A stretch of 64,000 nucleotides of DNA from Dictyostelium discoideum (lineage: Eukaryota), in assembly GCA_000004695.1 (NCBI GenBank), contig CM000155.2:1440001-1504000 (forward strand). Direction: 5' to 3'. The position numbers and the translations under genes were made by a program. The notes beneath the pieces are model-generated. The model had not been told where the DNA came from. It searched no databases and worked only from the letters and a program-made list of their open reading frames with translations. The first letter of the stretch is position 1. The number at the start of each line of letters is the position of its first letter. Below are positions 14,104 through 15,853 of this stretch, in pieces.

Positions 14104-15853
14104 TTAATCTAAATTAAAATTATATAATCTAACTAAATTATTGAAAACACCAATAATACGAGATCTATCATAATTTACTAAACTACAGCCAGGAGTTAAT
14201 GGAATTGGATCGGATGGATTAACGATATTTGAACCACCAAGTAATGAATATAAACGATTTCCAGATTGTTTATCCCATACTTTGATAGTATTATCTTTTG
14301 AACCTGTTAAAATCTTTTTATTATCAATTGTGATACTATTAATTTGATTTGTATGATTTGAGAGTACAAGAAGTGGATTTAAATTTGAATCTAAAAGATG
14401 GACATTAAAATCACCAATATTGTAAGCTACGTTATCGTTGGTGGCCGAGAATAATTGGTGGCCGCCAGCAATTGAGAAATGATTTGATAATGATTTTGAT
14501 CCCATTAACTTTCCATTTAAAATATTATATTTTAAAATACTACGATTATTTGAGAAAACGTAAACGAAATCTTTAGTTGGTTGATACCATTGTGGGCTTG
14601 GTAATCTGAGTATTGGTCTATCGAATCTTCTTAAATCCCATGAATCTAAATAATCACTAGTGTGGACGAATAGGTGACCGTTTGAGTGAAACTTTGAGGA
14701 AAACACCTCACCACTAATCCCAACCATACCATCACCACTTTGTTTATCCCTATGATCCCAAATTTGGATTGTGTCTTTATTAGTTGCAATTATTTGACCG
14801 TCACCCCCGATATTCACATTATAATCAATTGATAGAATTGGTGATTCAGTTTTCAAACAATTTGATTCCACACCTTTCTCAAAATCCCAAACTCTAACTG
14901 AACAATCATCACTACCTGATATAACTGAATATTGACGTTGTTTAATACATGTAACACTTCCACTATGTCCTGTAAATGTTTGAGTGTTTGTACCTTTTTT
15001 CGATGACAAATCCCATACCTTTACCGTTGAATCAACACTACCAGTACACATTACATTACCAATATGCTGAATGGATGTAATAGGTTGTGAATGTCCTCTA
15101 AATGGTACCATCTTAAATGTACCTGCTGCTCCTTTATTCTCATTCTTTTCATTTTGATAACAAATTTTAAAACATTTTTTATAATCATATTCATATTTTT
15201 CTGTATTAAAAAATTCAATACTATTAAAAATAAATAGAATAAAATAAATAAAATTTATTAATAAATTATTATTATTATTTTTAATTTTTTTTTTTTTTTT
15301 TTTACATACAATTGGAATAATTTAATCTTCCATAAGAATTTATGATTAATTGCTTTATTAAATTCTTTACAAACTAATGAGAATTTTAATATCTCTTTAA
15401 CTGGAAATTCTGAAAAAATTTGTGCATAAATTGTACTTGGTAAATTTAAAATCTGGAATTTTTTTTTTTTAGTATCATAATAATTAAAAATTATAATTAA
15501 TTTTATTTATTTTTACTTACACCATATGTAATTTTTTTAATTGGTTGAGATTCTTCCATAACTACATCTCTATTATTATTATTATTACTTGTGTTGTTGT
15601 TGTTGTTATTATTGTTATTTGTGTTATTATTATTTTCATCAACATCAAAACCTTTAAGTTTTAAAATTTTTTTATTCAATTCTTTATCAATTGGTGGTAG
15701 TGGCATTTGAATTTCTTTTCTGCAAAATGGACATAATTGTTCGATATGATATGATTTCTCTATACATTCTTTACAAAATGAATGTGAACAATATAATGTC
15801 ACTGGTTCAGTGAACAATTCAAAGCAAACCCAACAGTTATAGTCATATGACAT
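14104..15853 (-). CDS. RING finger + F-box + WD40-repeat protein of ~530 aa, 3 exons. On the minus strand they are 15521..15853, 15310..15452 and 14104..15220.
   Basis: Exon 1 starts 'MSYDYNCWVCFELFTEPVTLYCSHSFCKECIEKSYHIEQLCPFCRKEI', a C3HC4 RING. It is followed by an N-rich linker and ends at donor ITYG|GTAAGT.

Intron 1 has acceptor ...aattccag|. Exon 2 reads 'ILNLPSTIYAQIFSEFPVKEILKFSLVCKEFNKAINHKFLWKIKLFQ', an F-box. It ends CAA TT|GTATGT (phase 2).

The exon 3 acceptor is ttttaatag|T. Exon 3 reads '...IEFFNTEKYEYDYKKCFKICYQNEKNENKGAAGTFKMVPFRGHSQPITSIQHIGNVMCTGSVDSTVKVWDL...'. It contains about 7 WD40 repeats (several VWD/IWD/SWD dipeptides) and ends at the stop at 14104.

All splice phases are consistent. 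Confidence 0.7.

Follow-up and report, generated by a model that had tools for sequence, protein, structure and literature searches.

RING fingers and F-boxes usually represent two different ways of reaching an E2, and a protein that carries both is therefore a natural experiment in the cooperation of ubiquitin ligase modules. We asked whether such a protein is really encoded in the window analyzed here, a 64,000-nucleotide stretch of Dictyostelium discoideum DNA, how its architecture might have arisen, and what its RING finger might do. A sequence-only reading of this window had proposed a gene of three exons whose single product combines a RING-HC finger, an F-box and a seven-bladed WD40 propeller, which it considered an uncommon architecture. 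We found that the gene is the known fbxwD, and that its unusual architecture is real, already published and partly tested experimentally. Because the West laboratory has already recognized the combination of RING and F-box in fbxwD and has begun testing it, the locus adds no new object; our additions are a count of eight propeller blades, the distribution of the architecture across Amoebozoa, a comparison of introns, and the conservation of the RING residue by residue. The reading that we favor, at a probability of roughly 85%, is that fbxwD encodes an Fbw7/Cdc4-like SCF receptor with an E2-binding RING that cooperates in cis, the RING having been joined to an FBXW gene.

One gene encodes the RING, the F-box and the propeller

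The coding region of fbxwD lies on the minus strand, with its ATG at 15853 and a TAA stop at 14106-14104 (Table 1). An exhaustive scan of GT/AG pairs around the proposed junctions left a single open frame, that of the three-exon model of 530 amino acids; this confirms both the model and its GTAAGT (intron 1) and GTATGT (intron 2) donors. The poly-pyrimidine acceptors that had been described for the model are borne out for intron 2, but not for intron 1, where a run of A precedes the acceptor. Neighboring large ORFs at 8187-10121 (minus strand), 18128-20233 (plus strand) and 11779-12135 (plus strand) gave no Pfam matches.

Table 1. Features of the fbxwD locus, in positions of the window
Feature	Position	Strand	Basis
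fbxwD (DDB_G0292312), ATG to stop, 3 exons, 530 aa	14104..15853	-	sole open GT..AG model; 100% identity to XP_629697.1 / Q54DE4
Exon 1, 333 nt, aa 1-111: RING, LPLPP motif, helix, Asn-rich linker; ends in phase 0	15521..15853	-	
RING-HC (C3HC4), aa 7-45	15719..15835	-	Pfam zf-C3HC4_2; ligand conservation; closest solved sequences
LPLPP(I/V)N motif with invariant P51 and P53, then helix aa 57-66	15656..15706	-	family alignment, model
Asn-rich disordered linker, aa 75-109, pLDDT <50; length and sequence variable among orthologs	15527..15631	-	
Intron 1, 68 nt, GTAAGT...CAG, phase 0; position kept in four dictyostelids	15453..15520	-	
Exon 2 (F-box exon), 143 nt, aa 112-158 and 2 further nt; 5' phase 0, 3' phase 2 (asymmetric)	15310..15452	-	
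F-box, aa 112-153, with L115-P116 Skp1-contact motif	15327..15452	-	Pfam; conservation; loss of the Skp1-dependent phenotype in LPAA (PMC10539598)
Intron 2, 89 nt, GTATGT...TAG, phase 2	15221..15309	-	
Exon 3, 1117 nt with stop: helical linker and WD40 propeller	14104..15220	-	
Eight-bladed WD40 beta-propeller, aa 195-528	14113..15114	-	model, repeat motifs, fold matches
RLYSLLGGS, aa 481-489, first strand of blade 8, before an inserted loop of ~19 aa	14230..14256	-	

The predicted product is identical over its full length (100%) to D. discoideum AX4 DDB_G0292312 (XP_629697.1, Q54DE4), which has been named FbxwD (PMC10539598) and is alternatively called FbxD (fbxD). The published domain diagram of FbxwD includes the RING, the F-box and the WD40 domain, and its authors remark on the "unusual N-terminal RING" (PMC10539598, PMC9485057); the protein was also described by Sheikh et al. 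2015, as cited in later work. In Pfam, zf-C3HC4_2 (PF13923) scored 32.9 bits at residues 7-44 (cut-off 27) and WD40 (PF00400) scored 78.7 bits (cut-off 27). Scoring of the F-box segment had been set beforehand as a test that could refute the architecture, and the segment exceeded the cut-off of both F-box profiles, with 32.6 bits for F-box (PF00646, residues 112-153, cut-off 20.5) and 33.4 bits for F-box-like (PF12937, cut-off 24.3). Because all three domains lie above their cut-offs, the observation of a RING-F-box-WD40 protein holds; together with the full-length identity to FbxwD, this upholds the claim of an uncommon single polypeptide.

It could be argued that the three-exon model is a prediction artefact that merges a small RING gene with a separate F-box/WD40 gene, as exon 1 (15853-15503) and the propeller (15111-14104) each stand alone as ATG-initiated ORFs. 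However, there is a single in-frame splice model, and endogenous, C-terminally tagged FbxwD migrates as a band of ~70 kDa, with 68.43 kDa expected (PMC10539598, PMC9485057); we compute 60.5 kDa for the full-length protein, which fits this band once the tag is added. In addition, N-terminally FLAG-tagged FbxwD binds Skp1 and gives RING-dependent phenotypes (PMC10539598), and transcript contigs without introns, from five further genera of Amoebozoa, carry the RING, the F-box and the WD40 domain in one ORF. We therefore rejected the artefact, whose probability we regard as negligible: protein size, the sole splice model and the single-ORF orthologs refute it for practical purposes. The ~70 kDa band and the transcriptome-derived orthologs likewise contradict the idea, raised as a possible refutation of the original reading, that the RING exon belongs to a different transcript than the F-box and WD40 exons.

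The RING retains the residues of active RING fingers

The zinc ligands of the RING are arranged as C7-x2-C10-x11-C22-x-H24-x2-C27-x2-C30-x10-C41-x2-C44, followed by R45, and fit the RING-HC consensus C-x2-C-x(9-39)-C-x(1-3)-H-x(2-3)-C-x2-C-x(4-48)-C-x2-C. Among 19 family sequences, C10, C22, H24, C27, C30, C41, C44 and P17 are invariant, while C7 and R45 are conserved in at least 90%. The closest solved RING sequences are those of TRIM21 (3.8e-9), RNF8, RNF168, RNF4 and TRIM25, all of which are catalytically active RINGs. R45, which is replaced by K in D. purpureum, aligns to the Arg of the TRIM21 'CPVCR' and occupies what we take, from the mechanism of RING ligases and the sequence alignment, to be the 'linchpin' position of active RINGs. 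The predicted E2-contact positions are kept as well, with V or I at position 9 and P42 in the C41-P42 'CP' turn; the contact role of these positions is presumably the one seen in RING-E2 structures.

From the F-box onward, FbxwD resembles Fbw7 and Cdc4

Two residues of the Skp1 interface in the F-box, P116 and W152, are retained in 90% or more of the family members. The propeller that follows had been taken to be seven-bladed, and here the analysis led to a different count. In the AlphaFold model of FbxwD (mean pLDDT 83), the propeller comprises 32 strands, or eight times four, at a pLDDT of ~85-95, and the family shares eight conserved WD-like motifs at the ends of the repeats. The best structural matches in Foldseek are eight-bladed as well (Tako8/Ika8, TM 0.84-0.86; Fbw7, 0.75; Cdc4, 0.72), whereas the seven-bladed beta-TrCP scored lower (TM 0.60-0.65). 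Of the natural folds, Fbw7 and Cdc4 rank highest. We conclude that the propeller has eight blades and is of the Fbw7/Cdc4 type, a point that matters for models of substrate binding. The family's most conserved motif is RLYSLLGGS, in which Y483, L485, L486, G487, G488 and S489 are invariant; in the model it contributes a strand at residues 481-486, and the next strand follows at 506-509.

The Fbw7 match extends over 451 columns and includes the F-box. As modeled, then, FbxwD is Fbw7/Cdc4-like from the F-box onward, with an F-box, a helical linker and an eight-bladed WD40 propeller. Aligned pairwise, FbxwD and an Fbw7-like protein are broadly in register, but with too many gaps to place the Arg triad that binds phosphodegrons on the top face of the propeller. 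The AlphaFold model has no D domain directly before the F-box, where it shows just a short helix (residues 106-113), and it gives no confident placement of the RING with respect to the other domains.

An architecture found across Amoebozoa

The original reading had suggested a BLASTP-type check for orthologs with the same domain order, and such orthologs do occur across Amoebozoa: full-length ones were found in Acanthamoeba, Vermamoeba, Copromyxa, Phalansterium, Cavostelium and four dictyostelids. A profile search with the full-length family returned at least nine single-stretch full-length members, its best 150 matches being dominated by giant multi-WD40 proteins. When the RING-linker-F-box half was used in a word-indexed search, it returned five fragments of the FbxwD family and two TRIM-like RING fragments; no independent lineage combining a RING with an F-box was seen in this search, whose recall is incomplete (known members were not re-listed) and which therefore carries no conclusion on absence outside Amoebozoa. 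A literature search for general statements on a RING, an F-box and WD40 repeats in one polypeptide found nothing specific. Within Amoebozoa the architecture is ancient, and the fact that both it and the residues of an active RING are kept across the group argues for functional selection on the RING and against a mere dictyostelid oddity.

How the architecture arose is a separate question. The F-box was correctly noted to lie wholly within the 143-nt exon (domain, residues 112-153; exon, residues 112-158), and from this exon shuffling had been suggested, which we take to mean insertion of the F-box into a pre-existing RING-WD40 gene. The close bracketing of the domain by the exon borders speaks for such an event, as does the occurrence of the 143-nt exon, with identical size and phases, in D. 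purpureum and Acytostelium. The exon is not symmetric, however: its phases are 0 and 2 and its length is not divisible by 3, so that it could be neither inserted nor removed without a frameshift. Nor are the flanking introns common to all lineages that have the architecture, since intron 2, on the 3' side, occurs in D. discoideum, D. purpureum and Acytostelium but is missing from Tieghemostelium and Acanthamoeba. The Acanthamoeba ortholog retains the same full architecture even though a phase-1 intron interrupts its F-box; it also has a phase-0 intron ~2-3 residues from the site of the dictyostelid phase-0 5' intron, the homology of the two being uncertain. A further argument against shuffling is that the F-box and everything C-terminal to it form one continuous Fbw7/Cdc4-like fold. 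On the asymmetry of the exon and the intron patterns of Tieghemostelium and Acanthamoeba we rejected exon shuffling as the origin, which we consider very improbable. The continuous fold from the F-box on points instead to the addition of a RING to an FBXW gene. Most plausibly, a 5' portion encoding a RING became fused to a gene of the FBXW type, rather than an F-box exon being inserted.

What the RING might contribute

Published experiments place FbxwD in an SCF complex. Co-immunoprecipitation of the endogenous tagged protein recovers Skp1, CulE (the Cul1 equivalent) and Rbx1, and hydroxylation and glycosylation of Skp1 enhance the interaction (PMC10539598, PMC9485057); FbxwD is a genuine F-box protein, and its presence with these partners identifies it as the substrate receptor in an SCF ubiquitin ligase. 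Skp1 is bound through the F-box, the LPAA mutant of which shows reduced Skp1 binding; the VIT/vWFA proteins Vwa1 and Vwa2 are also bound by FbxwD, Vwa1 levels are unchanged by FbxwD overexpression or proteasome inhibition, and fbxwD resists deletion (PMC10539598). The phenotype caused by overexpression disappears when the F-box carries LPAA, and likewise with the RING mutations V9A and PF41/42AA, designed against E2 contact, and CH22/24AA, designed against zinc binding; the RING mutants keep Skp1 and Vwa1 binding in preliminary co-immunoprecipitations that the authors mention as data not shown (PMC10539598). A construct of FbxD residues 1-198 with a nanobody, which holds the RING and the F-box together, degrades ALFA-tagged targets in vivo (PMC13020093).

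We propose that the RING may be a functional E2-binding module, flexibly tethered by ~35 disordered residues, which would act in concert with the SCF that forms on its own polypeptide and not separately from it. It could supply propeller-bound substrates with a second E2~ubiquitin, or it could modulate the output of the SCF. Because the RING has no confident modeled position, its cooperation with the SCF in cis can be called geometrically possible, not more. A bolder version, which we put forward tentatively and think could well be wrong, is a 'two-headed' ligase in which the tethered active RING would recruit its own E2~ubiquitin to propeller-bound substrates of the same SCF complex and the RINGs of Rbx1 and FbxwD would divide the labor, an arrangement kept since the amoebozoan ancestor. 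The split might be, for example, between priming and chain elongation, or between different chain types. Such a ligase, if real, would parallel in cis-fused form the animal E3-E3 partnerships of ARIH1 with cullin-RING ligases and of COP1 with CRL4.

Alternatively, the RING could be the core of a stand-alone second ligase, with FbxwD switching between two mutually exclusive modes, an SCF receptor and a cullin-free monomeric or dimeric RING-WD40 E3 like COP1, TRAF7 and RFWD3. This would accord with a RING that, by its sequence, looks catalytically competent, with the matches of both the COP1 RING and the COP1 WD40 domain to FbxwD, and with the finding that SCF complexes account for only part of the FbxwD (PMC10539598, PMC9485057). 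It would also accord with the authors' conclusion that another protein appears partly to replace Skp1 in cells lacking Skp1 modification. Nonetheless, the overexpression phenotype depends on the RING as well as on the F-box, a requirement that the authors interpret as synergy and not as independent action (PMC10539598), and we consider a stand-alone ligase unlikely.

We are equally doubtful that the RING is non-catalytic, serving dimerization or regulation in place of the D domain through which Fbw7, Cdc4 and beta-TrCP dimerize, promoting auto-ubiquitination and hence receptor turnover, or tuning SCF chain elongation in the way suggested for Emi1/FBXO5 and its zinc-binding region. The model does lack a D-domain-like helix bundle before the F-box, and many similar RINGs are dimeric; TRIM21, TRIM25, RNF4 and RNF8 all act as dimers. 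Emi1 is, moreover, a precedent cited by the authors who studied FbxwD. Yet V9A and PF41/42AA, both of which abolish the phenotype, are aimed at the E2-contact surface and not at a dimer interface (PMC10539598). The Arg at the linchpin position and the E2-contact residues are, in addition, kept across Amoebozoa; their conservation counts against this possibility, as a purely structural role would not require it. We retain the E2-binding RING that cooperates in cis as the favored reading, and the biochemistry of the RING lends itself to direct testing.

Comparison with known ligases

Fbw7 and Cdc4 share with FbxwD the F-box, the helical linker and the eight-bladed propeller, with TM scores of 0.72-0.75 over ~450 columns. 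They are also its best natural sequence matches in the PDB (~1e-34); their identity to FbxwD is only 18-20%, they are not orthologs, and they differ upstream of the F-box, where they have a D (dimerization) domain and FbxwD has the RING and the disordered linker. The RING-HC fingers of TRIM21, RNF8, RNF168 and RNF4 (4e-9 to 3e-8) have in common with that of FbxwD the C3HC4 spacing, an 'EP.TL.C.H.FC..C' core and a 'CP.CR' ending. This likeness is at the domain level only, as the B-box and coiled coil, FHA domain and SIMs of these proteins are unrelated to FbxwD.

COP1 (RFWD2) is similar to FbxwD in that it has its own RING and a substrate-binding WD40 propeller and joins a cullin-RING ligase that contains a second RING, Rbx1. 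It docks on CUL4-DDB1-DET1; its RING matches FbxwD at 2e-5, and COP1 chains were among the matches of the fold search, but there is no sequence orthology between the two proteins. COP1 reaches its cullin through DET1 and DDB1 instead of an F-box and Skp1, has a coiled coil between RING and WD40 domain, and has a seven-bladed propeller. Emi1/FBXO5 and Drosophila Rca1, which the authors of the FbxwD studies name as precedent (PMC10539598, PMC9485057), resemble FbxwD in joining an F-box to a zinc-binding module akin to ubiquitin-ligase domains. Their zinc-binding region, however, is C-terminal and IBR/ZBR-like rather than a C3HC4 RING, it acts as an inhibitor of the APC/C, and it is found in proteins without a WD40 propeller.

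Gene model and domain content

The DNA of this region is eukaryotic and AT-rich, and it contains homopolymer runs as well as repeats of Asn codons. On its minus strand a 116-codon ORF begins at the ATG at 15853, and a second ORF (15111-14104) contains WD40-like coding sequence. When all GT...AG pairs around both proposed junctions were enumerated, a single combination preserved an uninterrupted frame, and the resulting 530-aa, three-exon gene is the one proposed in the sequence-only reading. Intron 1 measures 68 nt and is in phase 0, intron 2 measures 89 nt and is in phase 2, and their donors are the GTAAGT and GTATGT described in that reading. 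The polypyrimidine acceptors it also described hold for intron 2, which is T-rich, but not for intron 1, where a run of 12 A residues precedes the acceptor (…AAAAAAAAAAAATTCCAG). As for the surroundings, a tRNA-Gln gene (anticodon TTG) lies on the opposite strand ~420 bp past the fbxwD stop codon, and the three long flanking ORFs had no Pfam match at E<=0.001.

Judged against the curated Pfam cut-offs, the RING, F-box and WD40 modules all score above threshold on this one polypeptide, the F-box segment included, which confirms the proposed architecture. The RING has a complete set of C3HC4 ligands (C7-x2-C10-x11-C22-x-H24-x2-C27-x2-C30-x10-C41-x2-C44).

Features of the fbxwD locus and its relatives (window coordinates, except L001, the D. 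purpureum locus on GL871455.1, and L004, the Acanthamoeba locus on KB007811.1)
Feature	Position	Strand	Residues	Remark
Exon 1	15853-15521	-		sole open splice combination
Exon 2	15452-15310	-		sole open splice combination
Exon 3	15220-14104	-		sole open splice combination
Intron 1 acceptor	15453-15470	-
zf-C3HC4_2			7-44	32.9 bits, cut-off 27
F-box			112-153	32.6 bits, cut-off 20.5
F-box-like			112-153	33.4 bits, cut-off 24.3
WD40			whole protein	78.7 bits, cut-off 27
LPLPP(I/V)N	15686-15706	-	50-56
RLYSLLGGS region	14170-14256	-	481-509	blade 8
tRNA-Gln	13608-13680	+
Flanking ORF	8187-10121	-		644 aa
Flanking ORF	18128-20233	+		701 aa
Flanking ORF	11779-12135	+		118 aa
D. purpureum annotated intron	L001:1616-1843			228 nt
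Acanthamoeba downstream gene	L004:4698-6543			F-box-like (PF12937)

Identity with a studied protein

The spliced product is identical (100%, full length) to D. discoideum AX4 DDB_G0292312 (XP_629697.1, UniProt Q54DE4), which carries a hypothetical or uncharacterised label in databases. A full-text identifier search matched it to the protein named FbxwD in PMC10539598 (Front Cell Dev Biol 2023). Both the gene and its point of interest are already in the literature (PMC10539598, PMC9485057, PMC13020093). What was found again here has a name and has been studied by experiment, and a paper already deals with its unusual architecture. Apart from the number of blades and the idea of exon shuffling, the observation is real and was well read from sequence.

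As an F-box protein FbxwD has been validated; it binds Skp1 directly, and prolyl hydroxylation and glycosylation of Skp1 strengthen the interaction (PMC10539598; PMC9485057, JBC 2022). Endogenously tagged FbxwD co-immunoprecipitates Skp1, CulE (the Dictyostelium Cul1 equivalent), Rbx1 and the VIT/vWFA proteins Vwa1 and Vwa2, the latter two independently of the F-box. The gene resists disruption, and overexpression blocks terminal differentiation, an effect abolished by the F-box point mutation LPAA and by each of three RING mutations (V9A, PF41/42AA and CH22/24AA); in preliminary co-IPs, cited by the authors as "data not shown", the RING mutants kept Skp1 and Vwa1 binding (PMC10539598, PMC9485057). 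The authors consider a RING in an F-box protein "not unprecedented" yet unusual, with Emi1/FBXO5 as precedent (PMC10539598). A fusion of FbxD residues 1-198, comprising RING and F-box, to a nanobody is a working degron (PMC13020093, 2026).

The endogenous C-terminal FLAG fusion runs at ~70 kDa, against 68.43 kDa expected (PMC10539598, PMC9485057), and the untagged product has a computed mass of 60.5 kDa, which indicates a full-length protein that includes exon 1. All three modules also share a single ORF in transcript-derived orthologs of Phalansterium, Cavostelium, Copromyxa and Vermamoeba, in an MMETSP transcript and in many ~1.6 kb metatranscriptome contigs.

Conservation of the RING across Amoebozoa

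Full-length relatives with a named source come from Evosea, Discosea and Tubulinea: the dictyostelids D. purpureum, Tieghemostelium lacteum and Acytostelium subglobosum, together with Acanthamoeba castellanii (XP_004356532), Vermamoeba vermiformis, Copromyxa protea, Phalansterium solitarium and Cavostelium apophysatum. For FbxwD, the main text and one supplement of PMC10539598 yielded a comparison among dictyostelids and none beyond them. Two motifs that lie outside the Pfam domains, LPLPP(I/V)N and RLYSLLGGS, are characteristic of the family. The former directly follows the RING, beyond the Pfam RING model; its P51 and P53 are invariant across Amoebozoa, and a short helix (aa 57-66) comes after it.

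Over 19 full-length members (26-64% identity), C10, C22, H24, C27, C30, C41, C44 and P17 are invariant, and C7 and R45 reach at least 90% conservation. Every member has V or I at position 9, and the final ligand pair lies within a CP.C(R/K) turn. We take V9, the CP turn and R45 to be the E2-contact and linchpin positions of RING-E2~Ub structures; zinc-binding and E2-contact residues are thus conserved across Amoebozoa. The nearest solved sequences are TRIM21 (3.8e-9), then RNF8, RNF168, RNF4 and TRIM25, all with catalytically active RINGs, and the Arg of the TRIM21 CPVCR aligns with R45.

This conservation, taken with the published finding that V9A and PF41/42AA abolish the phenotype, makes a functional RING that binds an E2 the likelier reading. 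A non-catalytic RING, serving dimerisation or regulation, seems improbable beside these residues. It is similarly unlikely that FbxwD has an SCF-independent mode as a RING-WD40 ligase, as both RING and F-box are required for the overexpression phenotype (PMC10539598, PMC9485057). Others have shown FbxwD to be an SCF member through Skp1, CulE and Rbx1 (PMC10539598, PMC9485057), and residues 1-198 to be degradation-competent (PMC13020093). The RING would recruit or regulate an E2 in cooperation with the SCF formed on the same polypeptide.

Exon structure and origin

The placement of the F-box in its own exon had been read as a sign of exon shuffling. We threaded each annotated protein through its own genomic locus. 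D. discoideum, D. purpureum and Acytostelium share a 143-nt F-box exon between a phase-0 and a phase-2 intron. Tieghemostelium has the phase-0 intron before the F-box and lacks the one after; Acanthamoeba, with 10 introns, also lacks the latter, has a phase-1 intron within the F-box, and has a phase-0 intron before it that is ~2-3 residues off in a poorly alignable region. Because inserting or skipping a 143-nt exon with asymmetric phases would shift the frame, and because this layout is not common to all lineages with the architecture, shuffling is unsupported and we rejected it. Since the F-box-to-C-terminus portion is a single Fbw7-like unit, it would be more economical for an FBXW gene to have gained a 5' part that encodes the RING, with the phase-0 intron possibly marking the junction.

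The D. purpureum ortholog is annotated with two additional introns; one of them cuts out the counterpart of D. discoideum aa ~396-412 (blade 6) and may be an annotation artefact. In Acanthamoeba, the gene directly downstream of the FbxwD ortholog encodes a further protein that carries an F-box-like domain.

An eight-bladed propeller

An AlphaFold2 model built on the 19-sequence family alignment (mean pLDDT 83) is confident for the RING, F-box, helical linker and propeller, with aa 75-109 disordered. DSSP assigns 32 strands from residue 195 on, in eight groups of four, and each blade closes with a WD-like dipeptide conserved across the family (in D. discoideum VWDL, VWDF, IWDH, SWDL, KYNI, LLDS, VWDK and LYNF). 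In Foldseek searches against the PDB, eight-bladed propellers rank first (designed Tako8/Ika8, TM 0.84-0.86, rmsd ~3 Å), whereas seven-bladed beta-TrCP reaches just TM 0.60-0.65 (rmsd ~6-8 Å). The propeller therefore has eight blades rather than the seven originally counted.

No other stretch of the family is as conserved as RLYSLLGGS in blade 8, in which six residues are invariant. It is followed by an inserted ~19-residue loop bearing a conserved PGC; together they are a candidate site for binding a partner such as Vwa1.

Among natural proteins, the model matches Fbw7 (TM 0.75) and Cdc4 (TM 0.72) over ~450 columns, F-box and linker included, so that FbxwD shares their fold from the F-box to the C-terminus. 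Upstream of the F-box the proteins differ: Fbw7 and Cdc4 carry a D domain, whereas FbxwD has none, its RING being joined to the F-box part by a flexible tether of ~35 residues.
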